A stretch of 64,000 nt of DNA, taken from the NCBI RefSeq assembly GCF_031412795.1, contig NZ_JANODR010000017.1:64001-128000 (forward strand). Reading direction: 5' to 3'. The stretch is from Archangium sp. (GTDB taxonomy: Bacteria; Myxococcota; Myxococcia; Myxococcales; Myxococcaceae). Every line of letters begins with the position of its first letter. The stretch's first letter is position 1. A program made the position numbers and the translations under genes. Below the pieces are notes generated by a model. The model was given only the letters and a program-made list of their open reading frames with translations, was not told the DNA's origin and ran no database searches. Shown here one piece after another: positions 1,598-36,622 of the stretch.

Positions 1598-1618
1598 GCC
1601 GTTCAGCCCCGACCCCGT

Positions 1619-5205: not shown

Positions 5206-5769
5206 TCAGTCCTCGGTGAGGTACTTCAGGATCTCGTCCGCGTCCTGGGAGACCAGCCGTTTGACGCCATCCCGTCGGGCATGACGCTGGACCTGCATCT
5301 GGCCCACGGTGCTCCGCACGAGCACGCCGATCTTCCGGAAGCCGCCGATCCAAATGGGGCGGAGGCGGGCGAGGGCTTCTTCGAACTGGGGATCGTTCCT
5401 GCCAGGGGTGGCCCGGATATCGGAGAAGAGCCCATAGCGTGGGCGGTCCAACGTATCCAGGACGCTCCCGAGCCGCGCGAAGAGGCCGTCGAGTTCCTCG
5501 ATCGCGCCAAATGGTTTGTCGCTACGAATGGTGTGGACGATGCGCTTCCGCTCGTCCACGAGCACGGTGAAGTACTCGTCCTGGAAGATCTGCCGGGTAG
5601 TCGAAGAGAGGCCCACTATCGTCCCTGTACCGCGTCGCGATGCGCCATGAACAGTGACATGGTGGGCGGCAGGGACGGAAGACGCGTCGCCCGGTTGCTC
5701 GCCCTCCCTCCGGGGGCGGGGCCTGCTGCACGGGTGACAAGCGGTGGCGCTCCCTGTCATTCTCGCCAC
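5206..5769 (-). CDS. Hypothetical protein, start uncertain
   Basis: Open minus-strand frame. The C-terminal ~135 aa (from IVGLSSTTRQIFQDEYFTVLVDERKRIV) look protein-like. There is no in-frame ATG near that core, so the start may be a GTG, or the N-terminal 50 codons may be non-coding. Confidence 0.3.
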   Translation of the reverse strand: MARMTGSATACHPCSRPRPRREGEQPGDASSVPAAHHVTVHGASRRGTGTIVGLSSTTRQIFQDEYFTVLVDERKRIVHTIRSDKPFGAIEELDGLFARLGSVLDTLDRPRYGLFSDIRATPGRNDPQFEEALARLRPIWIGGFRKIGVLVRSTVGQMQVQRHARRDGVKRLVSQDADEILKYLTED

Positions 5770-5902
5770 TTACCGAGGGCCAAAAATCGGGTAGACCCTG
5801 GCGCCCCACCGTCCGTTGTAAGGAAGCGATGGAGGGGTGAGGACAGGTACGAGGCCCTGAAACGGGGGACTGTTGGGACCGGGAACCTCAGACGAACGGC
5901 TG

Positions 5903-6502
5903 ATGCTCGCCTTCCGGGCGGGGGATGCTCGTGCGTTCGAGGTGCTGGTGCGAAGGCACCGGACGCCGGTGTTCAACTTCATCCTGCGTTTCACCGGCCA
6001 CCGTGCACGGGCGGAAGACGTGCTTCAGGAGACGTGGCTCAAGGTGGTTCGCAGCGCGTCGGAGTACGAGGCGAAGGCGAAGTTCACCACTTGGGTCTAC
6101 ACGATTGCGAGGAACCTCTGCGTGGACAGCGCGCGCAAAGAGAGCTACCGGCAGACGGCCTCGCTGGAGGCGTCCGTGACGGGTGCCGAGGGCGACGAGA
6201 GTCGTCCGCTGGGTGAGTCGCTCCCGGACGAGGGCGTGAGCCCCGAGCGTGGCGCCTACAACGCCCGGCTGCGGCCCCTGCTGGAGCGCGCGCTCGCCGG
6301 CCTGCCGGAGGAGCAGCGCGAGGTCTTCGTGCTGCGCGAGTACAGCGGCATCCCCTTCAAGGAGATCGCCGAGGTGACGGGTGTGTCCGAGAACACGGTG
6401 AAGAGTCGCATGCGCTATGCCCTCGAGGGCCTGCGTCGGCGCCTGGCCGAGCTCGGGGTGGATGGGGACCTGGCAGAGGACGGAAGGACGGTGGCGGGAT
6501 GA
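5903..6502 (+). CDS. ECF-type RNA polymerase sigma factor (sigma-70 family, group 4)
   Basis: Region 2 FNFILRFTGHRARAEDVLQETWLKV.. and region 4 EQREVFVLREYSGIPFKEIAEVTGVSENTVKSRMRYAL. ATG 5903 is preferred; TTG 5873 is possible. Confidence 0.85.
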   Translation: MLAFRAGDARAFEVLVRRHRTPVFNFILRFTGHRARAEDVLQETWLKVVRSASEYEAKAKFTTWVYTIARNLCVDSARKESYRQTASLEASVTGAEGDESRPLGESLPDEGVSPERGAYNARLRPLLERALAGLPEEQREVFVLREYSGIPFKEIAEVTGVSENTVKSRMRYALEGLRRRLAELGVDGDLAEDGRTVAG

Positions 6503-7851
6503 AGCCGCAGGGTTCCCATGCGAACGAGGATCGGCTGCTGGACTTCGCCTATGGCGAGCTGCCGCCGTCCGAGGCCCGGGTGATGGAGCAGCACGTGCTG
6601 GGGTGCTCGCGCTGCTCCGAGGCGCTCGACGGCATTCGAGGCGTGCGCACCACCATGTCGCGGCTGCCGCTGCACTCGGCGCCGGAGGCGGGACTGGAGT
6701 CGTTGCTGGCCTACGCGCAGCAGGCCGCGCGCCGGTCCGCGGCGGGCCCCGAGCCCGCGCCCCGCTGGTGGCGTCGCCTGCTGGCGCCCGCGCTGAGCAT
6801 GGCGGCGCTGGGCGTCTTCGGCATCGTGGTCGTCCAGGTGAACCGCTCGGTGGACCTCAGCCCCACGCTCACCACCAAGAAGGAAGCCCCGGCGGAGATG
6901 GCGATGCGCCCGGAGCCCGCGAAGAACGCGCCGCTGCCGATGACCCAGGCCGTGCCCGCCGCCGCGGCCCCCTCGGCCCCCTCGCCCGAAACCCAGGTGC
7001 TCCACCAGCAGATGGACAAGCGCATGCAGGCTGAAATGCGCACCCCTCCTTCGAAGAAGGCGCCCAAGGTGATGCGCCGCGGGGAGTACTCGGACTGGTC
7101 CAACGCGGGCGCGGGCAGCGCGGGTGGCTTCCCGGACAAGAAGGAGGAGGCCGCGAAGTCCAAGGACGGGCTGGCCTCCAGCGGAAGGACCCGGAACACC
7201 CTGGCCACGGCGCAACCCGAAGCCGCCCCCGCGGGCAACGTGGCTCCAGCGGATGCGGAGGAGTCCCGGGTCGCCGAGGCCGCGTCCGCGCCCATGCCCA
7301 GCGCGCCCCAGCAGGTGGCGCAGTACACGCCGCCGTCCAGCCCGGCGCCGCGGGCGAAGAGCTCCGCTTCACGTACGTCGTCGAAGGGGAGCATGGCGGA
7401 CGCTGACGACGTGGCGCTGGCCCCCGGACGCGACCAGCTGCCGATGCCCGCCGAGCCGCCACCTCCTCCCGCCGCGCAGGCACAGGGGGTGGAGCGGGAA
7501 GCCAAGGCGGACGTCGTCGCGCGCAAGTCCGAGGCGAAGCCCGCCACCGCGAGCAGTGCCCCGTCTCCGACGGAGCTGCTGCGCCAGGCGGACATCGCCA
7601 ATCGCTCGGGGGACAGGGCACAGGAGTCCGCGCTGCTGCGTGGGGCGCTGTCCGCGGGCGTGAGGGGGAGTCAGCGGGTGGAGACGCTCTCTCGGCTGTG
7701 TGAGGCGGAGCTGGCGCTGGGCCGCCGGCAGAACGCCCTGGAGTTTTGCAAGCGGGTGATGTCGGAGGCGCCCGGCTCGAGCGAGGCGCGCGTCGCGCAG
7801 CGGCTGCTGGAGCGCGAGCTGGCGTCCGAGGCGGACGCGGCCAGGCAGTAG
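6499..7851 (+). CDS. Anti-sigma factor, ZAS-like zinc-finger N-terminus, single TM, Pro/Ala-rich periplasmic region and TPR-like C-terminus
   Basis: ATGA overlap with the sigma factor stop. HVLGCSRCSEAL (H-x3-C-x2-C) anti-sigma motif. TM segment LLAPALSMAALGVFGIVVV. Confidence 0.7.
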   Translation: MKPQGSHANEDRLLDFAYGELPPSEARVMEQHVLGCSRCSEALDGIRGVRTTMSRLPLHSAPEAGLESLLAYAQQAARRSAAGPEPAPRWWRRLLAPALSMAALGVFGIVVVQVNRSVDLSPTLTTKKEAPAEMAMRPEPAKNAPLPMTQAVPAAAAPSAPSPETQVLHQQMDKRMQAEMRTPPSKKAPKVMRRGEYSDWSNAGAGSAGGFPDKKEEAAKSKDGLASSGRTRNTLATAQPEAAPAGNVAPADAEESRVAEAASAPMPSAPQQVAQYTPPSSPAPRAKSSASRTSSKGSMADADDVALAPGRDQLPMPAEPPPPPAAQAQGVEREAKADVVARKSEAKPATASSAPSPTELLRQADIANRSGDRAQESALLRGALSAGVRGSQRVETLSRLCEAELALGRRQNALEFCKRVMSEAPGSSEARVAQRLLERELASEADAARQ

Positions 7852-11560: not shown

Positions 11561-13645
11561 TCAATGGGTGATGATCTTCGCCGGCGCGTCCTTGACGGCC
11601 GCGGGCAGCGCGTTGGCCAGCTGGTTGACGAGCGGCAACGACTCCTTGCCCTGCCACACGGCCGCCAGACGGGGCCGCCAGTAGGGGTTGAAGAAGTTGG
11701 GGTGCTCGGTCCAGTTGCCGGGCCGGTGGTAGTACGTCTGGCCGCGCGAGATGACGCTCATGCCCGAGGCCACGGAGAAGCCGGCGACCTCCAGCTTCTT
11801 GCGGTCGTTGTCCAGCTCCAGCGTCGCCGAGCCGCCGAAGTTGAAGGTGAGGCTCGAGCTGCCGTTGAGCCGGGACACGTCGTTGTGCGTGGCGCCCGTC
11901 GGATCGGCCCCCGTGTTGTGCAGCTCCTCCGAGTCCTTGTTGAGCATCACCCAGGCGGAGGGCTGGTTGAAGTCATGCTCGCGCTTGGCGGCCTGGTTGA
12001 TGCTGGCCTCGCCCTTCTTGGCCTGACCATTGTTGCAACTGCTGCACGAGCCGCCGCTGCCGCCGCCCGAGCTGTTGCCCCCCGGGTTGAGGCCCGCGCA
12101 GTCCCGCGCGTAGTCGCCCGGCTCGAAGTGGGGGAAGGGCGCCAGGCCCTCCCACGGGTGGTTGTTGTCCCGATCGTCGATGCGGACGTTGGCCGAGTAC
12201 ACATCCACCGAGAAGGGGCAGAGCCAGTCCGGCACGAAGGGGACCACGCACACCTCGTCCTTGTAGAGGCCCACGTTGGTGTCCGCCCTGCTGGCACCGC
12301 CGCTGTTCCTGAAGATGACCCGCCAGTGGATGCCGTTGCGGCGCAGATCCCTGTCGCTCATGGACCAGATGCTGGGCTTGAGCATGTCGTTGGGCTCCTC
12401 GCGCGGATCGCCCCAGCAGTGCCTGTAGTCGCGCTTGTCGTTGAGGATGCCTCCGGGCTCCTTGGGGCAGCTGAAGGGGTTGATCAGACCGATGTTGGAG
12501 GGGCCGATCTTGATGTAGTAGGTGTCGTCCGCGCCGATCACGTCACCCTGGGCCATCATGCCCATGGGGCTGCCGGGCGGATCGCGGTGCTCGCGGATCT
12601 TGTTGCGGCCCGTCCTGGGGCTCGCGGTGCCGTAGCCGAGCCGGTAGGTGAGCATGCGCGTCTGGCCCCACTTGGGGAAGCTGTTGAGCATGCTCTCCAG
12701 CGGCTGGAGCCAGCTGGGGATGGGCAGCAGGTCGCCCAGCTTGCGCGAGGTGACGAACGTCTCCGGGCAGATGCCCGAGCTGGCGTTGCAAGGGAAGCGC
12801 GTGGCGTTGCTGATGCCGCCCATCACGCGCTTGGCGCGCGAGACCTTGTCCCGCTCGTCGCGCTTGGTGGGATCCAGCGCGTCGAAGGGCTTGTACTTGC
12901 CCGTGAGCACCTGGCCGGGCGCGACGGTGGTCTCGTCGTAGTGCGTGCGGTTGAAGAGACACTGGTTGATGAGGCCCGCCAACGTCTGGGGGATGAACGA
13001 GTCCACGTGTGGATCGTTGGCCGCGATGATGGTGTTGGAGGTGCCCATCACGTAGGACGAGGAGGCCATCATCACCGCCACGGCCGCGCCTGACATGACG
13101 GCATTGAGCAGGCGATGGCCTGGGACCACCACCTTTCCGATGGCCCGGTCGATGAAGTCCATGCCCTGCTTCAGGAGGAGCAGCATCTTCTGGAGCACGG
13201 TGAAGATCGTGTTGATGACCCTCATCAGGGCTCCGATCCACGGCAAGACGTCCAGCACGGCGCAGATGATCTTCCATCTGCCCTTCCGGCTGTCCTTGGG
13301 GAAGCACGGGCCGATGGTGCGCATGAACCCGTAGATGTCCGTGAGGAAGGCCTGGACGAAGAAGATGAACGAGTTCAGCGACTGCCAGAGCATCGCCGAC
13401 ACGTAGTGCGACACCTGGGTGCGGTTGGTGAACGCGTAGAAGTTGAAGGCGCGCGCCTCCATGGCGGCCGTGGAGTAGGCCGCGGCGTCCGCCGTGTTCT
13501 GCAGGCGGATGCGCTCGTGCACGTTGTGCCCGATGTTGACGGTGGTGAGGAGCGCGATGCTCAGGATGAGCATCAGCAGACAGGCCATCACGAGCGCCTG
13601 TCCTTCCTGGCGCTGGAGGCTGCGACGAAGAGCGCGGGTCATCAT
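11561..13645 (-). CDS. TadG-like protein (Tad_N N-terminal domain), 694 aa, Cys-rich C-terminal region
   Basis: QEGQALVMACLLMLILSIALLTTVNIGHNVHERIRLQNTADAAAYSTA matches the Tad_N (TadG-like N-terminal) pattern. Gly/Ser/Cys-rich loop NSSGGGSGGSCSSCNNG. No VWA motif was recognised. Confidence 0.7.
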   Translation of the reverse strand: MMTRALRRSLQRQEGQALVMACLLMLILSIALLTTVNIGHNVHERIRLQNTADAAAYSTAAMEARAFNFYAFTNRTQVSHYVSAMLWQSLNSFIFFVQAFLTDIYGFMRTIGPCFPKDSRKGRWKIICAVLDVLPWIGALMRVINTIFTVLQKMLLLLKQGMDFIDRAIGKVVVPGHRLLNAVMSGAAVAVMMASSSYVMGTSNTIIAANDPHVDSFIPQTLAGLINQCLFNRTHYDETTVAPGQVLTGKYKPFDALDPTKRDERDKVSRAKRVMGGISNATRFPCNASSGICPETFVTSRKLGDLLPIPSWLQPLESMLNSFPKWGQTRMLTYRLGYGTASPRTGRNKIREHRDPPGSPMGMMAQGDVIGADDTYYIKIGPSNIGLINPFSCPKEPGGILNDKRDYRHCWGDPREEPNDMLKPSIWSMSDRDLRRNGIHWRVIFRNSGGASRADTNVGLYKDEVCVVPFVPDWLCPFSVDVYSANVRIDDRDNNHPWEGLAPFPHFEPGDYARDCAGLNPGGNSSGGGSGGSCSSCNNGQAKKGEASINQAAKREHDFNQPSAWVMLNKDSEELHNTGADPTGATHNDVSRLNGSSSLTFNFGGSATLELDNDRKKLEVAGFSVASGMSVISRGQTYYHRPGNWTEHPNFFNPYWRPRLAAVWQGKESLPLVNQLANALPAAVKDAPAKIITH

Positions 13646-13649
13646 GGGT

Positions 13650-14627
13650 TTACAGGCCCCAGCTGGGCTTCAGGTGCATCAGCCACTTGTAGTAGAAGTT
13701 CGACTGCATCCGCATGCTGTAGGTGGCCGTCAGCGGGATGAAGTAGCGCTTGCCGCCGATGAGGCCCGACAGGATGGGGATGTCCCCGCTGGCCACCGCC
13801 CACAGCACGGCCATCTCCACCTGGTAGAGCGTGTTGTAGCCGCGCTCGTGCCGGATGCCGCGGATGGGCACGAACTTCACCTGGCTCATGCCACCGCTGC
13901 GGTGGGTCATGCTCGTGTTGCGCTGGAGCGTGGGCCGGTCGATGGCGCCGTACAGCGACACCCCGGCGTTGGCCGCCCACCACGCGGTGAAGATGACCCA
14001 GTTGGCGAAGGGCACCTTCAGCTCGTACCAGTAGCGCAGGCGGATGCTCAGCACCGTGGCCTTGCGGTACGTCTCCTCGCCGTCGTCCGGAATCGACAGG
14101 TTGAAGAACTTGGCGATCTTCTGCTCCAGCTCCGGCACCTGCGGGTAGGCGTCCGGTCCGTCGAAGTCCAGCTCCTTCCAGTTGTAGCCCGTGCGCAGCT
14201 TCCACACGCTCCCGATGGAGTCGTACCAGGACGGGTTCACCGTATCGATGCGCACCTGGCCGAACAGGTTGGAGCCGTTGACGGTGGCCGGGATGATCCC
14301 GTTCTTGTTGGGCCACGCCAGCAGCTGCAGCGCCTCGTCATAGGCCTGGGCGATGGCCCACGTCTTTCCCAGCTCGAAGAGGGAGTCGGTGCGGCCCATG
14401 GTGGGCAGCAGCGCGATGATGGCGGCGTCCTTCATGCGCTCGTTGCTGCCGTTCCACACGATGCCCGTGCGCGCCGCGCTGTACGCCGCGTACTCGGTCA
14501 TGATCTTCGCGTGCTGCATCATCGTCAGCTGGATGATGCCCAGGCACATGAAGGTCATGAGCGGCAGCACCAAGGCGGATTCGACGGCGGCCTGACCTGA
14601 TTCCCTGGATTTGACGGGAGTAAGCAT
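13650..14627 (-). CDS. TadE-like minor pilin/pseudopilin (325 aa), first gene of the minus-strand operon
   Basis: ESGQAAVESALVLPLMTFMCLGIIQL is a TadE-like N-terminus. A 283-bp divergent intergenic region lies upstream. Confidence 0.7.
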   Translation of the reverse strand: MLTPVKSRESGQAAVESALVLPLMTFMCLGIIQLTMMQHAKIMTEYAAYSAARTGIVWNGSNERMKDAAIIALLPTMGRTDSLFELGKTWAIAQAYDEALQLLAWPNKNGIIPATVNGSNLFGQVRIDTVNPSWYDSIGSVWKLRTGYNWKELDFDGPDAYPQVPELEQKIAKFFNLSIPDDGEETYRKATVLSIRLRYWYELKVPFANWVIFTAWWAANAGVSLYGAIDRPTLQRNTSMTHRSGGMSQVKFVPIRGIRHERGYNTLYQVEMAVLWAVASGDIPILSGLIGGKRYFIPLTATYSMRMQSNFYYKWLMHLKPSWGL

Positions 14628-14774
14628 GGATGACGCTTTGTACCGACATTGTCACCTTCCAGGCATCGGTCAGGTGGACGCCACTGGAAGACGGCCGCTG
14701 AGCGGGGGACCAGGCCCGAAAAGGGGGTCCAACTCCAGGAAAACCAGAAAAGGCGTCAGGTTCGGGAAGCGCCT

Positions 14775-14802
14775 TTGACACCTGACATGACAGGTGGATA
14801 AC
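14775..14802 (+). promoter_or_regulatory. Candidate sigma-70-like promoter TTGACA-N16-GATAAC with embedded palindrome CACCTG-N6-CAGGTG, upstream of cpaB
   Basis: TTGACA at 14775-14780 and GATAAC at 14797-14802. The inverted repeat cacctgacatgacaggtg sits between them. Lies in the divergent intergenic region 14628-14910. Confidence 0.25.
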
Positions 14803-14910
14803 ATCGCACCCCGCTGGCGCCCAGGGCTCGCGCCACTCGTAACTCCGACACACCCAACGAGTTTCGCCGCCACCGCCTGGACGCCCCCCGCTTTTGGAGG
14901 TCCTCGAGAC

Positions 14911-15726
14911 ATGCTGAAGGGTAAGACTCCGCTCGTGATCGCTTTGGCGCTCGGCCTGTTGGCCGGCATCATCGCGTGGTCCGCCATCAAGAAGAAGGAG
15001 GCGGACGTGCGTCGTGGCTGGAACCTGGTGCCCGTGGTCGTGGCCTCCCAGGACATCCCCGAAGGCACCATCATCACCTTCGACATGATCAACCAGCGCT
15101 CGGTGCCCGAGCAGTTCGTCACCTCGTCGGTGGTGAAGCCGGAGTCGGCCACCTACGTGGTGGGGCAGAAGGTGCTGGTGGCGCTGCAGTCGGGAGATCC
15201 GCTGCTGTGGAGCCAGTTCGAGACCACGAAGGCCGCCGAGCGCCTGTCCACGCGCGTGCAGAAGAAGGTGCGCGCCGTCACGATCGAGGCCAAGTCCACC
15301 ACGTCGGTGGGCGGCTGGGTGCGTCCCAATGATCACGTGGACGTGGTCGGCACCTTCCGCGACCCGCAGACGGAGGAGCAGGTGGCGGTGACGCTGCTGC
15401 AGAACGTGATCGTCCTGGCCACGGGCAAGATCACCGGCACCACCAACGTCAACCTCATCCCGGAGAGCCAGCGCGAGTACAACAACATCACGCTGATGGT
15501 CATCCCGGAAGAGGCCGAAATCCTCATGCTGGCCACGGAGCTGGGCAACCTCACGCTCTCGCTGCGCAACGAGGAGGACGTGGACATGATCGAGGAGCGC
15601 GGCCGCGCCACCATCAGCACGCTGCTGTCCGGCGAGCGCACCCGCGTGCTCGAGCAGAAGCGTCGCGAGATCATCCAGATCATCAAGGGCAACGGCGAGA
15701 AGAGCGCCGGCGCGGGTCCCCAGTAG
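14911..15726 (+). CDS. cpaB: CpaB/RcpC-family Flp pilus assembly protein
   Basis: GGAGG lies 11 nt before the ATG. N-terminal TM LVIALALGLLAGIIAW, followed by a SAF-like segment and an RcpC beta-domain (GDPLLWSQF, VRPNDHVDVV). Confidence 0.8.
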   Translation: MLKGKTPLVIALALGLLAGIIAWSAIKKKEADVRRGWNLVPVVVASQDIPEGTIITFDMINQRSVPEQFVTSSVVKPESATYVVGQKVLVALQSGDPLLWSQFETTKAAERLSTRVQKKVRAVTIEAKSTTSVGGWVRPNDHVDVVGTFRDPQTEEQVAVTLLQNVIVLATGKITGTTNVNLIPESQREYNNITLMVIPEEAEILMLATELGNLTLSLRNEEDVDMIEERGRATISTLLSGERTRVLEQKRREIIQIIKGNGEKSAGAGPQ

Positions 15727-15770
15727 TAGTGGCCGTCTTCCTCCCCCGTCGCTGAAGGAAGTCCACGCGC

Positions 15771-16616
15771 ATGCTGGCCGGAATCGTTCTACTTCTCGTC
15801 ACCGGGTCGGTCTTCTTCTTCAGCCTGGTGATCTTCACCGTCCTGGCGAAGGCCTACGAGCAGTACCAGGAGCGGTACGTCGTCAAGTCGATGAACGACT
15901 TGAGCGACATGTTCCTGTTCGTGGATGCCCGGCAGTTGCTGGTGCTCAACATCGCCAGCATGTGCTTGATGGGCATCCTGTCGTACATCATCTTCAACCC
16001 CATCCTGTGCGTCATCGCCACGGTGTTCGGCTTCTTCCTGCCGATCATGCTGGTGAAGCACTACCGGGCGCGGCGCATCAAGCGCTTCAACGTGCAGCTG
16101 GTGGACGCGCTGCAGGCCATGGCCAACGCGTTCAAGGCGGGTCTGACCTTCCCGCAGGCCATCGAGCACGTGGCGCGCGAGGCGCAGCCGCCCCTGTCGC
16201 AGGAGTTCGGGCTCTTCGTGAAGGAAGTGAAGCTGGGCGTGCCGCTGGAGGAGGCCCTCATCAACATGGGCCGCCGGGTGGGCAGTGACGACCTGGAGCT
16301 GGTCGTGGTCGCCACCAACATCGCGCGCCAGCTGGGCGGCAACATGGCGGAGATGTTCGAGACCATCTCCAACGTCATCCGCGAGCGCTTCCGCCTCGAG
16401 GGGAAGATCGACGCGCTCACCTCCCAGGGCAAGCTGCAGGGGTGGGTGGTGGCGGCCATGCCGGCCATCCTCGGCATGGTGCTCAACTACATGCGGCCCG
16501 ACCTGATGGAGCCGATGATGGACCACTGGTTCGGCTACATCCTGGTGACGATCATCGCCATCATGGAAGTGCTGGGCGTGCTCATCATCCGGCGCATCGT
16601 CAACATCGATATCTGA
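15771..16616 (+). CDS. tadB: TadB-like inner-membrane platform protein (T2SS F family)
   Basis: T2SSF-type core LVDALQAMANAFKAGLTFPQAIEHVAREAQPPLSQEF flanked by N- and C-terminal TM helices. Confidence 0.8.
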   Translation: MLAGIVLLLVTGSVFFFSLVIFTVLAKAYEQYQERYVVKSMNDLSDMFLFVDARQLLVLNIASMCLMGILSYIIFNPILCVIATVFGFFLPIMLVKHYRARRIKRFNVQLVDALQAMANAFKAGLTFPQAIEHVAREAQPPLSQEFGLFVKEVKLGVPLEEALINMGRRVGSDDLELVVVATNIARQLGGNMAEMFETISNVIRERFRLEGKIDALTSQGKLQGWVVAAMPAILGMVLNYMRPDLMEPMMDHWFGYILVTIIAIMEVLGVLIIRRIVNIDI

Positions 16617-16625
16617 GGAGCTGTC

Positions 16626-17516
16626 GTGAGCGACGTCCTGACCTACATGTTGATGGGGGGCTCGGCGCTGATGTTCGCGGCGGCCGCGGGCTTCCTCGGC
16701 TTTGGCGTCTACCAGAACTACCTCGAGCGCTTCCTGTCGGAGGTGCGCGACGAGTCCGCTGGTGGCGTCAAGGGCCTGGGCTCGGTCACCATCCGCAAGC
16801 TGGGGGTGATCAACCGCAAGCTGATGTGGCCCGGCTACGAGTCCAAGGTGCGCCGCAACCTCATCAAGGCCGGCGAACCCGATGGCTTCAAGCCCGAAGA
16901 CATCATGGCGATGCAGGAGATCAGCGCCGTGGTGGGCCTGCTGGCGGGCCTCATCCTGGTCAACGGGATTGGCGAGAACCTCGGCTGGTCGCTGCTCTTC
17001 GCCCTGTTCGGCATGTACTACCCGCTCATCTGGGTGAGCGATCAGGTGAAGAAGCGCCACCTGCAGATCTCCCGGGCGCTGCCCTACAGCCTGGACCTGC
17101 TGACGCTGTCGGTGGAGGCCGGTCTGGACTTCACCGCGGCGCTGGCCAAGGTGGTGGAGAAGGGCAAGGCGGGCCCGCTGCGCGAGGAGCTTCAGATCGT
17201 CCTCAAGCAGCTCAAGATGGGCAAGACGCGCGAGGAGTGCCTCAAGGCGATGATCGCCCGGGTGGACCTGGCGCCGCTCACCACCTTCGTCACCGCGCTC
17301 ATCCAGGCGGACAAGATGGGCACCAGCCTTGGCAAGGTGCTGCGCATCCAGTCCACGCAGCTGCGCATCGACCGCACCCAGCGCGCGGAGAAGCTCGCGG
17401 GCGAAGCGCCGGTGAAGATGCTCTTCCCGCTCATCGCCTGCATCTTCCCCACGGTGTTCATGGTGCTCTTCGGCCCCATCGTGTTCCAGTTCATGTTCGG
17501 AAACGTCGGCGGGTAG
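16626..17516 (+). CDS. tadC: TadC-like inner-membrane platform protein (T2SS F family)
   Basis: GTG start with GAGGAG upstream. LPYSLDLLTLSVEAGLDFTAAL T2SSF core. C-terminal TM helices. Confidence 0.8.
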   Translation: MSDVLTYMLMGGSALMFAAAAGFLGFGVYQNYLERFLSEVRDESAGGVKGLGSVTIRKLGVINRKLMWPGYESKVRRNLIKAGEPDGFKPEDIMAMQEISAVVGLLAGLILVNGIGENLGWSLLFALFGMYYPLIWVSDQVKKRHLQISRALPYSLDLLTLSVEAGLDFTAALAKVVEKGKAGPLREELQIVLKQLKMGKTREECLKAMIARVDLAPLTTFVTALIQADKMGTSLGKVLRIQSTQLRIDRTQRAEKLAGEAPVKMLFPLIACIFPTVFMVLFGPIVFQFMFGNVGG

Positions 17517-17522
17517 TGCTCC

Positions 17523-19154
17523 GTGGGCTGCCTGCTCACCATCTCCAAGGGGCTGCAGCAGGGGAGGGAGTACACCTTCGAGCAGCCCGAGCTGCACATC
17601 GGGCGCACCCCGGAGAACGACCTGGTGCTCCAGGATACCGGGGTGTCGCGCCAGCACGTGCGCATCTCGGAGCGCATGGGGCGCTACTACGCCCAGGACA
17701 TGGGCAGCTCCAATGGCACCCGGCTCAACGACGCGCCCCTCATCGGGGAGCGCGCGCTGAATGACGGGGACCGGCTCGCGTTGGGCGCCGCGGAGCTCGT
17801 CTTCAAGGAAGTGGTGAGCGACGAGGACGCCACCCGGCCCATGATGACGGTGAGCCCGGTGGTCGAAGACGACGCCACCCGCCCCATCAAGACGATGCGC
17901 CCGGTGGTACCGGTGGAAGAAGACGACGCCACCCGCCCCATCCGACGCAACCCCACTGGCGTCTCCTCGCTCGCGGCGGTGGAGCCCTCGGGCCCCCCGG
18001 TCCTGCACCCCGTGGACAAGGCTCCGGCTTCCGGCGGAGCGGGGGGCGCCCGCAGGGCGACGATGGGGCAGATGCCGCTCCCGCCGCCAGTGCCCCCTCC
18101 CGCGGCCCTGGCCCGGCCCGAGCCTCGCGCTCCCGCCCTCGTCGATGACGAGGCCCCCACGACGGCTCCCGTTGGCAAGTCCGAGTCCGCTCCCGCGTCC
18201 CCGGGCCTGTCCGCCGCGGACAAGGCCCGGCGTCGGCGCGAGCGGGGCGCCACGCTCGCGGGCCAGTTCTCGCTCTGGTGGTCCGAGCTGTCCGGAGCGG
18301 GGAAGGGCGTGCTGCTCGCCCTGGCGTGCTGCTTCGTGCTGGGCACGGCGGTGGCGCTCGAGGTCGTCTTCCGCCCCTCGGCGGGCGAGCAGGCGACCAC
18401 GGGTCCAGAGCCCACGGTGCTGGGCCTCCAGGTGGTGCCGGACTCGTTCGGCCTGGGCAACGACGTGAAGTGGTCCCAGCCGGACCTGAAGACCTTCGAC
18501 TTCGAGTTCGTCTCGCCCACCCGCGCCGTGGTGGTGGTGCGCTACCAGGCCAGCGGCATCTCCAAGGACGAGGTCTCCGTCTCCATCAACGCGGTGCCCG
18601 TGGGCTTCATCCCCGCCGACACCATCAATGCCTCGGAGCGGGAGGTGCAGCAGATCCTCTCTCCGGCTGTGCTCAAACGAAATGAGCGCAACCAGCTCGT
18701 CTTCGACAACGTGCACAACCCCCCCGGCCGTAACGGCTGGCGGGTGTGGAACCTGAAGCTGGAGATCATCCCCGTGCCGGAGCTGCCTCCGGAGAAGCTG
18801 CTGGAGACCGCGCGCGACTACGCGGCCCAGGCCCGCGCGTACTACGATCAGCGCGAGGTGGGTGCCGAGAACCTCTTCCGCTCCTGGGAGAGCTTCCGCT
18901 CGGCGTGGATCACCCTGGAGGCCCTGGACGAGAAGCCGGACCTCTACCAGGATGTGCGCTACATGCTGGGCCAGGTGGCGGTGGACCTGGACCACAAGTG
19001 CGGGCAGTTGATGCTGGATTTCAAACGGAACATCCAGTTCAAGGACAGGAAGCGGGCAGCCGCGGCACTGGCCAACGTCAAGACGCACTTCCCTACAGCG
19101 GCGCATCGCTGCCACAATCTGGCGGTCGAAAAAGCCAACGAGTACGGGCTGTAA
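17523..19154 (+). CDS. FHA-domain bitopic membrane protein with DDATRP repeats and ~280-aa C-terminal domain of unknown function
   Basis: N-terminal FHA domain (LHIGRTPENDLVLQDTGVSRQHVRI...SSNGTRLN). TM VLLALACCFVLGTAVALEVVF. The GTG start lies 7 nt after the tadC stop. Confidence 0.75.
   Translation: MGCLLTISKGLQQGREYTFEQPELHIGRTPENDLVLQDTGVSRQHVRISERMGRYYAQDMGSSNGTRLNDAPLIGERALNDGDRLALGAAELVFKEVVSDEDATRPMMTVSPVVEDDATRPIKTMRPVVPVEEDDATRPIRRNPTGVSSLAAVEPSGPPVLHPVDKAPASGGAGGARRATMGQMPLPPPVPPPAALARPEPRAPALVDDEAPTTAPVGKSESAPASPGLSAADKARRRRERGATLAGQFSLWWSELSGAGKGVLLALACCFVLGTAVALEVVFRPSAGEQATTGPEPTVLGLQVVPDSFGLGNDVKWSQPDLKTFDFEFVSPTRAVVVVRYQASGISKDEVSVSINAVPVGFIPADTINASEREVQQILSPAVLKRNERNQLVFDNVHNPPGRNGWRVWNLKLEIIPVPELPPEKLLETARDYAAQARAYYDQREVGAENLFRSWESFRSAWITLEALDEKPDLYQDVRYMLGQVAVDLDHKCGQLMLDFKRNIQFKDRKRAAAALANVKTHFPTAAHRCHNLAVEKANEYGL
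17820..17948 (+). repeat. Three tandem coding repeats D(E/D)DATRP(M/I)xT(V/M)xPVV inside the FHA protein gene
   Basis: gacga(g/c)gacgccacccg(g/c)ccc recurs three times at about 45-nt spacing. Confidence 0.6.
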
Positions 19155-19192
19155 GGTCCGGGCTCGAGCACGAAATGAAGTGGTGATCTGCC

Positions 19193-21007
19193 ATGTCGAA
19201 CGGTTCTCCCCCCACCCGTCGTCGCCCGACCTCGACCAACAGCTCGGCCGCGGGTTCCACCGACCCGCGCCCCGCGGTGCGCAAGACGGCCGCCGCGCCG
19301 GCCGTTCGGGAGCCTGTCCCGGTGCTGGGCACCAAGCTGGTGGTGTCCGCCGGCCCTCAAGCCGGTGCGGAGTTCGGGCTGGAGGATGGCGAGTACGTCA
19401 TCGGTCGCGCCAACGACAACCCCATCTGCATCCCGGACACCTCGGTGTCGCGCAAGCACGTGCTGGTGCGCCGCGTGGGCGGGGGCTGGGCGGCCAGCGA
19501 CCTGGGCTCCGGCAACGGCACCCTCATCAACGGCGAGCCCATCACCGATGAGGTGCCGCTGTCCCACGGCGACGTGCTCACGCTGGGCGACACGGAGGTG
19601 ACGTTCAACGACACCTCCAACGCCACGATGATGATGCCGATGCCCTCGGCGCCTCCGTCGCGTCCGGCCCGGGGTGGCTCGCGTCCCTCCGCTCCCGCCG
19701 CCGCTGCCGCTGCTCCCGCCGAGGCCGAGGAGGGGGGCGAGGCCGGTGGTGCTCCGCGTCGTCCGCCGCCCCGTCCCGAGTCCCGCGTGCGCCCGGGTCG
19801 TGGGGGTCGCGGTGCCGCCGCGCCGGATCCGGCGGCGCAGCAGCGCAAGAAGCGCCTGCTCATCCTCACCGCGGCCGTCTTCGTGATGCTCGTGGGCCTG
19901 CTGGCCATCATCAAGTCCAAGCAGCAGGAGGAGGCCGCGGCCCAGCTCGCCGCGGCGAAGGTCGCCCAGGAAGCGCGTGCTCAGCTCGCCGCCCTCTTCC
20001 AGGACGCCAAGAACCTCATCCGCGAGAACAAGTGGAAGGACGCCAAGGCGAAGCTGCTGGAGCTCCAGGAGGCCGATCCCGAGTACGTGCAGCTCGAGGA
20101 CTACCTGGCGCGCGTGGACAAGGAGATTCCCAACCAGGATGCGCTCGACGAGGCCAAGGCGGCGCTGGACAAGAACCAGCTCGGCCCGGCGGCGTCCGCG
20201 GTCAACAAGGTGGCCAAGGACACCCAGCTCTTCGAGCAGGTGCGCCTCGTGAAGCTGGGCCTCAAGGAGAAGGCCGACAAGCGCGTGCGGGAGGCCCAGG
20301 CGCTGATGGATCAGAAGCAGCTGGATCAGGCCAAGCTCGTCGTGGATGACGTGCTCGTCGCCGACCCCGAGCACCGCGATGGCAAGGTCATCTCCGAGCA
20401 GGTCAATGCCGCCATCGAGCTGCGTGATCGGCCCGCGCCCGTGGACCGCGGGCCCGCGCCCGTCCATCCGTGGGATCAGGCCGTGGACCGCTTCCGGGAT
20501 GGAGATCTCCAGGGCGCGGTGGCCATCGTCAACGCCTGCGCGGGCAAGAAGCCGCAGTGCAAGACGCTCATGGGCCAGATGACGGACTTCGGCAACCTCT
20601 ACAAGAAGCTGGAGGACCTGGACGCCAAGGGCCTGGGGCGGCTGCTGGACCTGGACAAGAAGATCACCAACGGTCGCGGTAGCAGCAAGATGGCGCGCAA
20701 CGCCGGAACGCGTGCCTCCAACATCTTCTTCCGCAGCGCCTCGGCGGCCAAGGCGTCCGGCCAGTACGGGCGCGCCATGGAGAACGCCCAGCGCGCCCTC
20801 CAGGCGGACCCCAGCCACGTCGGCGCCAACAACATCGCCAACGAGCTGCGGCAGAAGGCCAAGGACATCTACCTCCAGGCCTACACCATCCGCGAGAGCG
20901 ATCCCCAGGACGCCCTGCCCAAGTTCCGCGAGGCCATGAGCATGACCACGCCGGAGGACGAGACGTACCAGAAGGCCAAGTCGTGGATCGAGAAGCTCGA
21001 GCGATGA
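19193..21007 (+). CDS. FHA-domain bitopic membrane protein with Pro/Ala-rich linker and long helical/TPR-like C-terminal domain
   Basis: FHA domain (YVIGRANDNPICIPDTSVSRKHVLV...GSGNGTLINGEPI). TM LLILTAAVFVMLVGLLAII. The C-terminus is rich in helical repeats. Confidence 0.75.
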   Translation: MSNGSPPTRRRPTSTNSSAAGSTDPRPAVRKTAAAPAVREPVPVLGTKLVVSAGPQAGAEFGLEDGEYVIGRANDNPICIPDTSVSRKHVLVRRVGGGWAASDLGSGNGTLINGEPITDEVPLSHGDVLTLGDTEVTFNDTSNATMMMPMPSAPPSRPARGGSRPSAPAAAAAAPAEAEEGGEAGGAPRRPPPRPESRVRPGRGGRGAAAPDPAAQQRKKRLLILTAAVFVMLVGLLAIIKSKQQEEAAAQLAAAKVAQEARAQLAALFQDAKNLIRENKWKDAKAKLLELQEADPEYVQLEDYLARVDKEIPNQDALDEAKAALDKNQLGPAASAVNKVAKDTQLFEQVRLVKLGLKEKADKRVREAQALMDQKQLDQAKLVVDDVLVADPEHRDGKVISEQVNAAIELRDRPAPVDRGPAPVHPWDQAVDRFRDGDLQGAVAIVNACAGKKPQCKTLMGQMTDFGNLYKKLEDLDAKGLGRLLDLDKKITNGRGSSKMARNAGTRASNIFFRSASAAKASGQYGRAMENAQRALQADPSHVGANNIANELRQKAKDIYLQAYTIRESDPQDALPKFREAMSMTTPEDETYQKAKSWIEKLER

Positions 21008-23159: not shown

Positions 23160-23188
23160 CTCCTCGTGAGTAGACCTGCCGGTGCACC

Positions 23189-23578
23189 ATGCCGAAGCCC
23201 AAGGTCACCATCGTCGACGACGACCGCGATACCCGCGAGATGCTCTCTTTCGCCCTGGAGTCGGACGGGTTCGAGGTCAACGCCGCGGCCAACGGGCTGC
23301 GGTTGATCTCCTCCCTGCAGCTCCAGCGGCCGGACGTCATCCTCATGGACGTGAACATGTCCTGGATCGACGGTTTCGAACTGTGCAAGGCGGTGAAGAA
23401 GAACGAGCAGTTCCGAGACATCCCCGTCATCTTCATCAGTGGACGCGGAGATGCCGAGGACAGGCGGCGCGGGCTGGAGGCCGGCGCCGCGGACTATCTA
23501 GTGAAGCCGTTGGATCTCACCGCGCTCATCGAGCGTCTGCGAGAGCTGATTCCATCGGCCGCATCCGAGGTACCCTGA
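23189..23578 (+). CDS. Single-domain response regulator (CheY-like receiver)
   Basis: VTIVDDDRDTREM..., phospho-acceptor context ILMDVNMSWIDG, GADDYLVKP-like (AADYLVKP). Confidence 0.85.
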   Translation: MPKPKVTIVDDDRDTREMLSFALESDGFEVNAAANGLRLISSLQLQRPDVILMDVNMSWIDGFELCKAVKKNEQFRDIPVIFISGRGDAEDRRRGLEAGAADYLVKPLDLTALIERLRELIPSAASEVP

Positions 23579-30728: not shown

Positions 30729-30912
30729 GGCGGCCGAGTATACGCTGGGGGATCTTCCTCACAATTCTTGCCCAGACCCGTCGAGTCCGACACGCTGGCC
30801 CCCAGCCGGCTTAGGCTGGCATGATTACTTCGCGCATGAAGGTTGACGCTTTCTTGAAAACTTTCCGGTCTCCCCATACCCCCGTCCAAGGCTCGGCAGC
30901 ACGAGGTCTCCA

Positions 30913-33414
30913 TTGAGAGCGGAGCTTGCGGGAACACGTGGTCGCATCCTGGTCATTGGTGCGCGGGCGGCGAATGAAGCCGTGCTCGAGCACCTGTCCG
31001 GCAGCGGCTACGAGTGGGCCATCACCGAGGACATGACGGAGCTGCCCACGCTGGCCGAGTCGTTGCAGCCAGACGCCGTCCTGGTGGCGGCCACCGGAAA
31101 GCGGGCCACCGAGGCACTCGCCGCCGTCCGCCAGGACGTGCGGCTGCGGGAGCTCCGGGTGCTGGCGGATCTCACCCGCTCGCGCTCGGAGGTGCTGCGC
31201 AAGCTGCCCGTGGACGAGTGGGTGCGCTCCCTGGAGGAGCTCGCCCCCCGGCTGGACTCGGTGCTGCGCGAGCGCCGGCTCCGGGATCGCACCCGCAACC
31301 GGATGGAGCGGCTGCTGGAGATCACCCAGGCGGCCACCAGCTCGCTGGAGCTGGAGCAGATCCTCCGCCTCGCGGTGGAGAAGGTGGGCGCCGTCATCAA
31401 CGCGGACCGCTGCTCCGTGGTGCTGGTGGAGGACATCAACTCCCGCACCGCCAGTGTGGTGGCCACGCTGGAGGACCCGGGCCTGTCGCTGGACGTGGAC
31501 CTGGCGCGCTACCCCGAGCTGCGCCGCGCCCTGGAGACCCGCAAGGCCGTGCTGGTGGAGGAGGCCCAGCGGGATCCGCTGATGGCCGAGGTGCGCCCCA
31601 CCATCACCTCCATCGGCGTGCGCTCCATCCTCGTGCAGCCCCTGGTGTGCCAGGACGAGCTGCTCGGAGCGCTCTTCCTGCGCATCTCGCATGGCACGGA
31701 CGGCTTCAGCCGGGACGAGCAGGAGTTCTCCCAGGCGGTGGCGGCGGCGCTCGCCAACTGCATCCGCAACGCCCGCCTGCACACCGCGCTCAAGAGGAAG
31801 CGCGACGAGCTGGAGCTGGCCTATGTGGAGCGCTACCGCGAGCTGACCGAGGCCAACCGCCGCCTCAAGGATCTCAACCGGCTCAAGGATGAGATCATCG
31901 CCGTGTGCAGCCATGACCTGCGCGCCCCGCTCCAGGTGCTGCTGGGCCATGGCCGGCTGCTGCTGGAGAGCGTGCTGGATCCGCAGCAGAAGCAGTCCAC
32001 CGAGGCGATGATCCGCCAGGGCCGGAAGATCCTCGGTCTGGTGGAGTCGCTGCTGGAGCGCGGCAAGGGCGACGTGGCGCGGCTGTCCATCGAGCCCCGC
32101 GTGCTGGACATCGCGGCGCTCTGCAAGGACAGCACCGGCGAGTTGGAGATCCTCGCCGCCGATCGTGGGGTGGTCCTGACGGCCGAGGCCCCCGAGAGCA
32201 TGATGCTCATCGGCGACGAGCTGAAGCTGCACGAGGTGCTACAGAACCTCATCACCAACGCCATCCACCACGCCAAGGACGCGGGCAAGGTGGTGGTGAA
32301 GGCCTCGCGGCTGGTGCGTCCGGACGGTGACGTGGCGCGCCTCGTGGTGCAGGACGACGGCAAGGGCATTCCCCCCGAGGAGCTGCCGCTCGTCTTCGAT
32401 CGCTACCGCAGTGGCGCGAAGGGCAGCGGCGGCACGGGCCTGGGACTCGCCATCTGCAAGGAGTTCGTGGAGCTGCACGGCGGTGAAATCTGGGCCGAGG
32501 CACCGCCCGAGGGTGGTGCCGCCTTCATCTTCACGCTGCCGCTGGCGCAGGAGATCCACCGCGCCGTGAAGAACCTCCCGGCCAAGGACACGTCCGAGCA
32601 GCCGCGCGTGCTGGTGGTGGAGGACGAGCCGGAGATCGCCGCGGTGCTGGTGGAGGTGCTGCGCTCGCGCTACCGCGTGGACGTGGCGCGCGACGGTGCC
32701 GAGGGACTGGCGCGGGCGCGCTCGTCCAGGCCGGACCTGGTGGTGATGGACGTCTTCCTGCCCAAGCTGGACGGTCTGGACGCCGCGGTGGCGCTCAAGT
32801 CCTCCTCGGACACGGCCGGCATCCCCGTCATCCTCCTGTCCGCCCACCAGGGCGTGGCCGACAAGGTCCGCGCGCTCAACCTGGGCGCGGTGGACTACAT
32901 GAGCAAGCCCTTCAACGCGATGGAGCTGCTCGCCCGCACCGAGCGGGCCCTCAAGCTGCGCAAGGCCGAGAACGAGATGGAGCGCACCTCCTCGCTCCTG
33001 CGCCGCAGCGGGAACGATCCCATCACCGGCCTCTATGACCGGCGTGGCCTCATGCTGCGGTTGGACCACGAGGTGAACCGTGGGCGGCGCTACAGCCGGC
33101 CGGTGAGCCTCGCGGTGCTCCGCCCGGATCGCCCCGTGTTGGACGAGTCGCTGCGCGGGGTGCCGGACGTGATGCGCGCCCGGCTGCGCACCCCCGACAT
33201 CATCGGCCACCTGGGCGAGGGCGTGCTCGCCGTCGTCCTGCCCGAGTGCAATGTTGAAGCGGGACGCAACGTCATCGGCCGACTGATTCCGGATGTCGAG
33301 AAGCACACAGGGACGGACTACCGCTCGGCGGTGGCGGACGTGAGCCACGACAGCGAGCCGGTGGAGCGCATCCTGGAGCGCCTGGGCGCACCGGTCCACG
33401 TGCCGAAGCTGTAG
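30913..33414 (+). CDS. Hybrid sensor histidine kinase: pseudo-receiver, GAF, HisKA, HATPase, receiver, degenerate GGDEF-like C-terminus
   Basis: H-box IAVCSHDLRAPLQ. ATP-lid DDGKGIPPEE...GLGLAI. Receiver VLVVEDEPE...VVMDVFLPKLDG. The C-terminal ITGLYDRRGL...HLGEGVLAVVLPE resembles GGDEF but has LGEGV in place of GGDEF. TTG start at 30913 is uncertain. Confidence 0.8.
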   Translation: MRAELAGTRGRILVIGARAANEAVLEHLSGSGYEWAITEDMTELPTLAESLQPDAVLVAATGKRATEALAAVRQDVRLRELRVLADLTRSRSEVLRKLPVDEWVRSLEELAPRLDSVLRERRLRDRTRNRMERLLEITQAATSSLELEQILRLAVEKVGAVINADRCSVVLVEDINSRTASVVATLEDPGLSLDVDLARYPELRRALETRKAVLVEEAQRDPLMAEVRPTITSIGVRSILVQPLVCQDELLGALFLRISHGTDGFSRDEQEFSQAVAAALANCIRNARLHTALKRKRDELELAYVERYRELTEANRRLKDLNRLKDEIIAVCSHDLRAPLQVLLGHGRLLLESVLDPQQKQSTEAMIRQGRKILGLVESLLERGKGDVARLSIEPRVLDIAALCKDSTGELEILAADRGVVLTAEAPESMMLIGDELKLHEVLQNLITNAIHHAKDAGKVVVKASRLVRPDGDVARLVVQDDGKGIPPEELPLVFDRYRSGAKGSGGTGLGLAICKEFVELHGGEIWAEAPPEGGAAFIFTLPLAQEIHRAVKNLPAKDTSEQPRVLVVEDEPEIAAVLVEVLRSRYRVDVARDGAEGLARARSSRPDLVVMDVFLPKLDGLDAAVALKSSSDTAGIPVILLSAHQGVADKVRALNLGAVDYMSKPFNAMELLARTERALKLRKAENEMERTSSLLRRSGNDPITGLYDRRGLMLRLDHEVNRGRRYSRPVSLAVLRPDRPVLDESLRGVPDVMRARLRTPDIIGHLGEGVLAVVLPECNVEAGRNVIGRLIPDVEKHTGTDYRSAVADVSHDSEPVERILERLGAPVHVPKL

Positions 33415-36165: not shown

Positions 36166-36228
36166 CGTAGGTTCGATTTCCTTACAGAGCAAACTTCGAT
36201 TCTCGAGGGCGCTTCCGAGGGTCACCGC

Positions 36229-36573: not shown

Positions 36574-36622
36574 ACGGGCCCCGCGGCCCGCTTAAACCCT
36601 TCGGGAGGGGTGGACAACACTC

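Follow-up and report, generated by a model that had tools for sequence, protein, structure and literature searches.

Three tandem DATRP repeats that directly follow the FHA domain of a predicted inner-membrane protein from Archangium sp. appear to be duplications of one short linear motif, [DE][DE]-D-A-T-R-P-Φ (Φ, hydrophobic residue). The protein is encoded at 17523–19154 of a 64-kb stretch of contig NZ_JANODR010000017.1 (positions 64,001 to 128,000; hereafter, the window), in a locus that, judged by its gene content and order, corresponds to cluster 2 of Kil, a Tad-like prey-killing machine. With a probability of roughly 60%, the repeats are phospho-acceptor and FHA-ligand sites that have been multiplied for valency.

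The FHA membrane protein and its three repeats

The open reading frame (ORF) at 17523–19154 (+) has a GTG start and encodes 543 amino acids (aa); its product is identical to WP_309888689.1 from an unclassified Archangium sp. (P0506 in the cluster listing). The product is orthologous to MXAN_4649 of Myxococcus xanthus over its full length and by synteny, and the proteins of Myxococcus spp. found in the homolog search share 48–50% identity with it at 96–100% coverage. The G–C content at third codon positions (GC3) of this frame is 0.92, which suits a genuine gene where the genome has 69% G–C, and the same value rules out the antisense ORFs 15789–19115 (−) and 17687–18520 (−), which are high-GC artefacts. 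No Rfam match was found over 17000–19500.

Pfam analysis of the product detected an FHA domain (PF00498; aa 25–88; 59.6 bits) and a Yop-YscD_cpl match (63.4 bits); the FHA profile threshold is passed, and the 11-strand β-sandwich fold is present. The structure was predicted by AlphaFold2 (AF2) for the full-length protein as an unphosphorylated monomer, with a 70-sequence alignment as input; confidence is given as the predicted local distance difference test (pLDDT) score. Based on this model, the product is predicted to be a single-pass (bitopic) inner-membrane FHA protein with the following features:

17523..19154, + strand: FHA membrane-protein gene (ORF list, GC3, Pfam, homologs, supplementary table of Seef et al. 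2021)
17523..17813, + strand: cytoplasmic FHA domain, aa 1–97 (Pfam; AF2 pLDDT above 90)
17817..17864, + strand: repeat 1, S-DEDATRPMMTVSPVV; T104 (codon 17832–17834) is its candidate phospho-acceptor (tandem-repeat analysis)
17865..17918, + strand: repeat 2, EDDATRPIKTMRPVVPVE, with T119, codon 17877–17879; the lineage-specific middle copy (tandem-repeat analysis)
17919..17963, + strand: repeat 3, EDDATRPIRRNPTGV, with T137, codon 17931–17933; the widely conserved copy (70-sequence majority consensus)
17829..18200, + strand: disordered Pro/Ala-rich cytoplasmic linker carrying the repeats, aa 103–226 (AF2)
18210..18359, + strand: basic juxtamembrane helix SAADKARRRRE, aa 230–240, followed by a single transmembrane (TM) helix, aa 262–279 (AF2; hydrophobic run)
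18390..19151, + strand: periplasmic domain, a β-sandwich and a helical bundle, aa 290–543 (AF2 pLDDT about 90)

The linker was modelled at pLDDT 29–48 without secondary structure (below 50 for aa 103–161, 166–186 and 188–226), and AF2 places helices at aa 231–255 and 258–283 in the juxtamembrane/TM region, in which A231, A232, A235, R236, R238 and R239 are near-invariant among the 70 aligned sequences. The periplasmic domain is the family-defining part of MXAN_4649-type proteins. It contains two invariant cysteines, C493 and C530 (window 18990–19001 and 19104–19118; aa 490–493 and 528–532), and, near the C-terminus, an invariant F-P-T-x-x-H-R-C-H-N-L signature, which together suggest a disulfide or a metal site; no close solved structure was found for this domain family.

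The original prediction, made from the letters of the DNA and a list of its ORFs, had placed three tandem copies of a DATRP-containing unit directly after the FHA domain, at 17820–17948, and translation, Tandem Repeats Finder and repeat-family analysis confirm them. This segment encodes D100–R142, and the sequence after the FHA domain reads LVFKEVVS-DEDATRPMMTVSPVV-EDDATRPIKTMRPVVPVE-EDDATRPIRRNPTGV, with DATRP at aa 102–106 (nt 17826–17840), 117–121 (17871–17885) and 135–139 (17925–17939). At the nucleotide level, Tandem Repeats Finder reports 2.0 copies with a period of 45 nt at 17819–17908 (84% matches; score 131), the repeat search recovers one family whose three copies are spaced 45 and 54 nt apart, and repeats 2 and 3 have 24 identical nucleotides in common, GAAGACGACGCCACCCGCCCCATC. 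The unit had been described as D(E/D)DATRP(I/M)xTxxPVV; its core is present in all three copies, in the common form [DE][DE]DATRP(M/I), and the xTxxPVV part holds for copies 1 and 2 and fails in copy 3, as is seen from the residues after DATRP (MMTVSPVV, IKTMRPVV and IRRNPTGV, respectively). Neither DATRP nor [DE][DE]DAT occurs outside the three repeats in any of the six frames of the window, which argues against base composition as the source of the array. Only about three residues separate the last FHA β-strand (AF2 strands extend to aa 97) from the first repeat; T104, the first motif Thr, lies about 7–10 residues beyond that strand, and copy 3 lies about 40 residues out. A reading of RPIRR as an RxxxR motif of the cyclic di-GMP (c-di-GMP) type was ruled out, since only the last copy has RPIRR and no PilZ-like fold is present.

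Conservation and copy number of the motif

The homolog search returned 215 proteins of 447–951 aa from Archangium, Vitiosangium, Myxococcus, Pyxidicoccus, Corallococcus, Stigmatella and Hyalangium. Aligned, 70 orthologs give VEFxFxxVxPxxDxDATRPIRRxxP as their majority consensus, after which most positions are x, and D-A-T-R-P-I-R-R is the sole conserved island in an otherwise unalignable linker. The ortholog consensus of repeat 3 is D-x-D-A-T-R-P-I-R-R, and repeat 1 has its counterpart in the first copy, DDATRPFMPV, of the Archangium orthologs. Across 104 motif instances, which were selected by the pattern D.T[RQ].[ILVMF], the positions left free by that pattern hold A(−1) 85 times, P(+2) 91 times and R(+4) 64 times, and positions −3 and −4 are mostly D or E; within the sets allowed by the pattern, R(+1) accounts for 98, and I, F, V, L and M at +3 for 73, 17, 7, 4 and 3, respectively. 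In 109 close homologs, 113 occurrences of T[RQ]xΦ were counted versus two of S[RQ]xΦ. The pattern is absent from 29 close homologs, which carry either DATRIRE or, in Stigmatella/Hyalangium, the block RSST(L/R)ITRAxTExEM.

Alignment of the orthologs revealed that the copy number ranges from one to four:

One copy: most Pyxidicoccus and Corallococcus
Two tandem copies (DDATRPFMPV + DDATRPIRRN): Archangium
Three copies of a 15–18 aa unit: the window protein and its >90% identical relatives
Two to four copies of a different unit, DATRPIR(R/L)xDPxPxxDP (GDEDATRPIRRGDPVPALDPDATRPIRL): a Myxococcus group that includes M. xanthus AM003
One proximal and one distal copy, about 180–245 aa apart: M. fulvus, M. 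stipitatus and C. terminator
Three copies of DATQPVDAATLARALAP: P0087
Two or three copies of PNATLLKPP or QSTRIV: remote members

The ortholog of M. xanthus AM003 (L002) has two tandem copies. Repeat 2 is confined to the window protein and to those relatives that are >90% identical to it (P0001, P0507, P0508 and P0510), and the middle copy is therefore a recent, lineage-specific duplication, the third copy, DDATRPIRRN, being the widely conserved one. Among these relatives, the spacers differ by indels while all three cores are kept. Expansions that are built from different repeat units always include a DATRP-type core; judged by those units, rather than by a phylogenetic tree, the expansions probably arose independently. 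Conserved Thr residues in an acidic context had been predicted for each copy, and this proved right for the DATRP Thr, which does not vary freely but is invariant across orthologs and extra copies alike; conservation does not extend to the second Thr or to the PVV of the predicted unit. The idea of an oligomerisation ladder needs a similar adjustment: because copy number is lineage-specific, the single motif is the likely unit of function, and the ladder an add-on to it.

The linker of Archangiaceae orthologs has a second conserved island, (S/A)(G/A/V)PPVLxPV, which reads SGPPVLHPV in the window protein (17988–18014; aa 156–164); Myxococcus orthologs have (Y)LPTGxxPAxxPV instead.

Motif statistics in the wider family

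A search with the periplasmic domain against 1.84 billion representatives yielded 355 clusters at 50% identity (E ≤ 1e-3), and an N-terminal FHA domain was found in 78 of the 145 relatives that were fetched. For these 78 representatives (at ≤50% identity), the 110 residues after the FHA domain were compared with 500 shuffles. The pattern T-[RML]-[IVLMP]-[IVLMFK] occurs 55 times, as against 5.6 ± 2.3 in shuffled linkers (maximum, 13 in 500), a ten-fold enrichment, and its Ser version occurs three times, although Ser is the commoner residue there (7.6 vs 5.9%). Likewise, TR[IVLP][IVLF] is found 40 times with Thr and never with Ser. It is known that FHA domains tell phosphothreonine (pThr) apart from phosphoserine. 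At least one motif copy is present in 43 of the 78 representatives, with two or three in 10; typical divergent forms are GSTRIVS, NATRIV, DSTRIF and PNATLLKPP, and in 43 representatives the first motif Thr follows the NGT loop of the FHA domain at a median distance of 48 aa.

FHA pocket and known acceptor logos

The pThr-binding residues G27-R28, S42-R43-Q-H45 and S62-S-N64-G65-T66 are present in the window protein, align with those of GarA and OdhI, and are invariant or at least 90% conserved among the 70 orthologs; the pocket thus appears competent for pThr. Among FHA domains of solved structure, those of GarA, OdhI and DgcB come closest to this one in both sequence and fold, and FHA-1 of Rv1747 is a relative in both respects as well.

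According to the literature, in PknA-dependent sites of Mycobacterium tuberculosis position −1 and positions −3 to −6 are acidic, +2 is Pro, +3 is Leu/Val and +4 is Lys/Arg (PMC7164672), and acidic residues at −2 to −5 are favoured by most kinases of that species (PMC6030727). The motif of the window protein is acidic from −2 to −4, has Pro at +2, and is hydrophobic at +3 and basic at +4; it fits the PknA logo and also the wider preference for an acidic −2 to −5. The phosphorylated self-tails bound by GarA, OdhI and DgcB follow a rule of their own, namely, an acidic residue at −2 and hydrophobic residues at +2 and +3, the latter of which is inserted in the FHA cleft (PMC6733907). Both D-A-T-R-P-I and S-T-R-I-V obey this rule, and the window protein has the matching arrangement of a disordered, FHA-adjacent segment with a conserved Thr, D(−2), P/I/L(+2) and I/V/F/M(+3). 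The predicted phospho-acceptor or FHA-binding role is thus backed in part, by indirect signs: the preference for Thr over Ser, the fit to kinase logos and the intact FHA pocket. The prediction is limited by the second Thr and the PVV, which are not conserved, and by the triple array, which is lineage-specific.

Kil cluster 2 and the second FHA protein

The genes that surround the FHA gene are as follows:

11561–14651, − strand: TadE/TadG-like pseudopilin genes (Pfam)
14794–15726, + strand: kilB, RcpC/CpaB-like (Pfam RcpC, 84.9 bits)
15771–16616, + strand: kilG, TadB/TadC-like platform protein (Pfam T2SSF, ~65 bits)
16626–17516, + strand: kilH, TadB/TadC-like platform protein (Pfam T2SSF, ~65 bits)
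19193..21007, + strand: second bitopic FHA protein, ortholog of MXAN_4648 (Pfam FHA, 65.9 bits)

Downstream of the second FHA gene lies xseA. The order kilB-kilG-kilH-FHA-FHA/TPR over 14794–21007 is that of MXAN_4652 to MXAN_4648 in supplementary file 18 of Seef et al., who describe Kil cluster 2 of M. xanthus as kilB (MXAN_4652), kilG (MXAN_4651), kilH (MXAN_4650), MXAN_4649 ("PrgH-like, FHA") and MXAN_4648 ("FHA; TPR"), the last two without gene names (PMC8460266). The literature search found no paper on MXAN_4649 or MXAN_4648 and no report of an MXAN_4649 mutant.

The MXAN_4648 ortholog has a motif of the same kind after its FHA domain, FNDTSNATMMMP (nt 19604–19639; aa 138–149; F-N-D-T-S-N-A-T-M-M-M-P). 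The form D-x-x-N-[AS]-T-M-M-[VM] stands directly after the FHA domain in 114 of 116 MXAN_4648-type homologs; Ser was never found at the Thr position, position +3 is always V, M, I or L, and the motif is doubled in some members (DATMMMP...DATMMIP). A reading of N-[AS]-T as an N-glycosylation sequon was ruled out, given that this stretch is in the cytoplasm and that the DATRP form has Asp in place of Asn. The N-terminus of this protein, MSNGSPPxRRRPT, is also strongly conserved.

The motif in a kinase family

A DNA scan for [DE][DE]DATRPI, with one genome per species, gave at least 119 loci, a sample rather than a census. Among the matches listed, about 22 are orthologs of the window protein, and most of the non-orthologous loci look like chance, as exemplified by the linker of a Der GTPase (EDDATRPIRLALVGRPN) and by EEDATRPI in RmlD. 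In several unrelated bacteria (L026, L076, L096, L109 and L116), the peptide E-[DE]-D-A-T-R-P-I-[RK]-[LM]-A-L-V-G-R-P-N-[AV]-G-K-S was seen by eye just before the second G-domain P-loop of apparent Der/EngA-type GTPases, which is a different and probably coincidental context for the hexapeptide DATRPI.

One match, L054, is of another kind. In a metagenome-assembled genome of an uncultured deltaproteobacterium (JBEPUF010000056.1), the gene at 5724–7574 (+) encodes a Hanks-type Ser/Thr kinase (Pkinase, E = 1.4e-33) that carries DEDATRPIRK between the kinase domain and the membrane, and [DE]-x-D-A-T-R-[PQ]-[IL] occupies the same juxtamembrane place in nine of its 12 closest homologs, while the flanks drift. 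The first match came by the design of the scan; its conservation within the kinase family did not. The family is unrelated to the window FHA protein. It is known that juxtamembrane linkers of bacterial kinases are autophosphorylated and that the linker of M. tuberculosis PknB docks the FHA protein FhaA (PMC12077195). Based on the shared motif, D-A-T-R-P-[IL]-R, it is possible that L054-type kinases act as upstream kinases or as kinases that dock FHA proteins. A second conserved island, (D/S)TEELDxIxGE, is found upstream of the motif in this family.

Proposed mechanism and alternatives

The motif, its conservation with Thr rather than Ser, its varying copy number, the disordered linker, the competent FHA pocket and the gene neighbourhood are observed; from them we infer that the Thr is phosphorylated, that a kinase and a partner act on it and what this does to the machine. 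The favoured mechanism would run as follows. An unlinked Hanks-type Ser/Thr kinase would phosphorylate the invariant motif Thr, and the resulting pThr-x-x-hydrophobic site would be bound by an FHA domain, which may belong to a second copy of the same protein, to the MXAN_4648-type neighbour, to KilD, to KilF or to MXAN_3104. Phosphorylation would thereby recruit or cross-link Kil components at an inner-membrane platform, and extra motif copies would raise valency and avidity. The termini of FHA domains lie opposite the peptide-binding loops. Because of this and of the short distance from the end of the FHA domain to the first Thr, binding in trans seems likelier than in cis, though copy 3 could also reach in cis. 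A wider scheme is conceivable but speculative: Kil may be nucleated at prey contacts by a multivalent FHA–pThr network of MXAN_4649- and MXAN_4648-type proteins with KilD, KilF and MXAN_3104, in which copy number tunes threshold and avidity and the motif marks the upstream kinases. In such a network, the firing of an unlinked kinase could lead to head-to-tail polymers, resembling the clusters of Rv1747 or the condensates of Fha in T6SS (type VI secretion systems).

Several observations speak against the phospho-acceptor reading. No Hanks kinase was found in the window, either by Pfam in the long, codon-biased ORFs or by tblastn with two kinase domains (best E = 0.15), nor was a PP2C-type phosphatase domain detected in the long, codon-biased ORFs scanned by Pfam; Kil cluster 1 lies outside the window. 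The literature search retrieved no M. xanthus phosphoproteome that covers MXAN_4649, and a query for KilD plus phosphorylation returned nothing specific. Some lineages depart from pT-x-x-Φ, with R at +3 in DATRIRE and K at +3 in ATLLKPP, and Stigmatella and part of Hyalangium are without the acidic DATRP and carry SST(L/R)ITRA instead. In the AF2 model, the repeats have pLDDT values of 31–45 and are not docked on the FHA domain, a result that is uninformative for a phospho-dependent contact and lends it no backing. The regular expressions behind the motif statistics were set after the data had been viewed, and the sequences are related, which makes the counts descriptive; for such post-hoc patterns, the contrast between Thr and Ser is an internal control. 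The bias towards Thr could in part reflect the β-propensity of a strand-forming docking motif.

Of the competing explanations, a switch in cis of the GarA/OdhI/DgcB type, in which the phosphorylated motif folds onto its own FHA domain, closes the pocket and releases or blocks a partner, with the extra copies as redundant bait, is unlikely but has the most in its favour. The FHA domain is most similar to those of GarA, OdhI and DgcB, all of which bind their own tails; the motif follows the same rule of an acidic −2 and hydrophobic +2 and +3; and it is always adjacent to the FHA domain, as the median spacing from the NGT loop indicates. Nevertheless, with the first Thr so close to the last strand and the loops on the opposite side, steric reasons make the contact doubtful for copy 1 and for orthologs with one copy; known self-tails stand on the N-terminal side, at a distance of 18–33 residues, and AF2 leaves the segment undocked. 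The distal second copy of some orthologs would also suit use in trans or valency better.

Less probable still is docking that is independent of phosphorylation, whereby [DN]-[AS]-T-R-Φ-Φ would bind another part of Kil, such as the ATPase KilF, the platform proteins KilG/KilH or KilD at its cytoplasmic TPR, as an extended or β-strand peptide, and Thr would be retained because of its shape or β-propensity and not to accept phosphate. The family-wide core S-T-R-I-V is indeed rich in β-branched residues, some variants are without a hydrophobic +3, no kinase is encoded nearby, and TPR proteins are abundant around the Kil genes. Such docking does not account for a Thr in whose place Val, Ile or Ser is hardly ever found, for the fit to kinase logos (−2 to −4 acidic, +2 Pro, +4 basic), for the recurrence of the motif in a kinase juxtamembrane linker, or for its constant pairing with a pocket-competent FHA domain.

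Neutral replication slippage in a low-complexity spacer, giving length or flexibility between the FHA domain and the membrane, appears very improbable: the linker is disordered and Pro/Ala-rich, ortholog length varies widely (447–951 aa), copies 2 and 3 are flanked by CCGGTGG direct repeats and have the 24 identical nt typical of recent slippage, and copy number is not conserved, but the core is kept across genera at 30–50% identity where the rest of the linker is unalignable, is enriched ten-fold over shuffled linkers, recurs in expansions of different units and is spared by spacer indels, so that the conservation and enrichment data disfavour it.

Comparison with known phospho-dependent FHA systems

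The phospho-acceptor reading places the window protein near several described systems. As in GarA (M. tuberculosis/M. smegmatis) and OdhI (Corynebacterium glutamicum), an FHA domain stands next to an acceptor-type Thr segment, which is E-T-T-S-V-F in those proteins. GarA and OdhI regulate metabolism as small, soluble proteins, each binding its one N-terminal tail in cis, whereas in the window protein the motif stands close by on the C-terminal side of the FHA domain, occurs in one to four copies in the family, and belongs to a bitopic protein of a pilus-like machine, with the phosphorylation being putative; three C-terminal copies, a TM helix and a 250-aa periplasmic domain set it apart from a small soluble protein with a single N-terminal tail. 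DgcB of Bdellovibrio bacteriovorus, an FHA-GGDEF protein that is needed for prey invasion, likewise has a self-derived phospho-tail. Its tail is single and N-terminal and its output is c-di-GMP, in contrast to the window protein, which has no enzymatic domain and carries a TM helix and a periplasmic domain.

Rv1747 of M. tuberculosis also combines FHA with a disordered linker holding several acceptor Thr residues (FHA-1, pT152/pT210, FHA-2), and its multisite phosphorylation drives FHA–pThr oligomerisation and clustering at the membrane (PMC8339232). Rv1747 has two FHA domains per chain and its cognate kinase, PknF, in the operon; in the window locus, unlike it, the operon encodes two FHA proteins with a single FHA domain each, a kinase was not found nearby, and what is repeated is one defined motif. 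In the T6SS, a contact-triggered antibacterial machine, cytoplasmic pThr14 of the inner-membrane component TssL is read by Fha, which licenses assembly (PMC3953482). The T6SS is a contractile sheath with the kinase PpkA and the phosphatase PppA encoded in the cluster, whereas Kil is a Tad-like pilus with neither in the window, and the candidate acceptor and reader of the window protein are, unlike those of the T6SS, on the same polypeptide. The authors of the Kil study, who suspect FHA signalling, refer to T6SS threonine phosphorylation as a model (PMC8460266). A further likeness is to YscD/PrgH/PscD of the type III secretion system (T3SS), which have a cytoplasmic FHA-like domain, a TM helix and periplasmic domains; it is reflected in the Yop-YscD_cpl match and in the HHpred-type PrgH match given to MXAN_4649 by Seef et al. 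(PMC8460266). The loss of pThr residues and the periplasmic ring-building motifs of T3SS YscD/PrgH are not seen in the window protein.

That FHA domains read nearby phospho-Thr tails, and that pThr and FHA domains control secretion machines, is already known. No description was found in the literature searched of such a motif C-terminal to the FHA domain, in bitopic proteins of a Tad-like predation machine or in both FHA proteins of one operon, nor of its amplification to one to four copies with different units or its recurrence in a kinase juxtamembrane linker. For the assembly of Kil at prey contact, the authors of the Kil study point to "unknown spatial determinants" and to surplus FHA proteins, with no site or partner named (PMC8460266). 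The present analysis names candidate residues, namely, the two DATRPIR Thr of M. xanthus MXAN_4649 and the N-[AS]-T-M-M Thr of MXAN_4648, and so turns a suspicion of FHA signalling in Kil into specific residues that can be mutated in a tractable model organism; the DATRP motif, being searchable, may also flag upstream kinases. If the phospho-acceptor reading is true, FHA/pThr licensing as known from the T6SS would extend to a Tad-like pilus machine, and the repeats would be a natural case of valency tuning by expansion of a phospho-motif. Even without phosphorylation, the motif would still be a conserved docking element of an uncharacterised Kil component.

Other features of the window

The xseA-like ORF is listed with a GTG start at 20983, which gives a 25-nt overlap with the 3' end of the second FHA gene, and Pro and Ala abound in its first ~80 residues; xseA probably starts further downstream. 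Within 12 kb of the Kil genes, a stand-alone receiver protein is encoded at 23174–23578 (+) and a hybrid histidine kinase, composed of GAF-HisKA-HATPase-receiver and matching GGDEF weakly, at 30847–33414 (+). Two adjacent bactofilin genes (PF04519; ~93 bits each) are found at 36166–36573 and 36596–36949 (+). A few kb upstream of the Kil genes, two consecutive genes at 782–1597 and 1598–2752 (+) encode MshEN domains (PF05157; 58.5 and 55.7 bits) with no ATPase domain match; MshEN is a c-di-GMP-binding domain in other systems.

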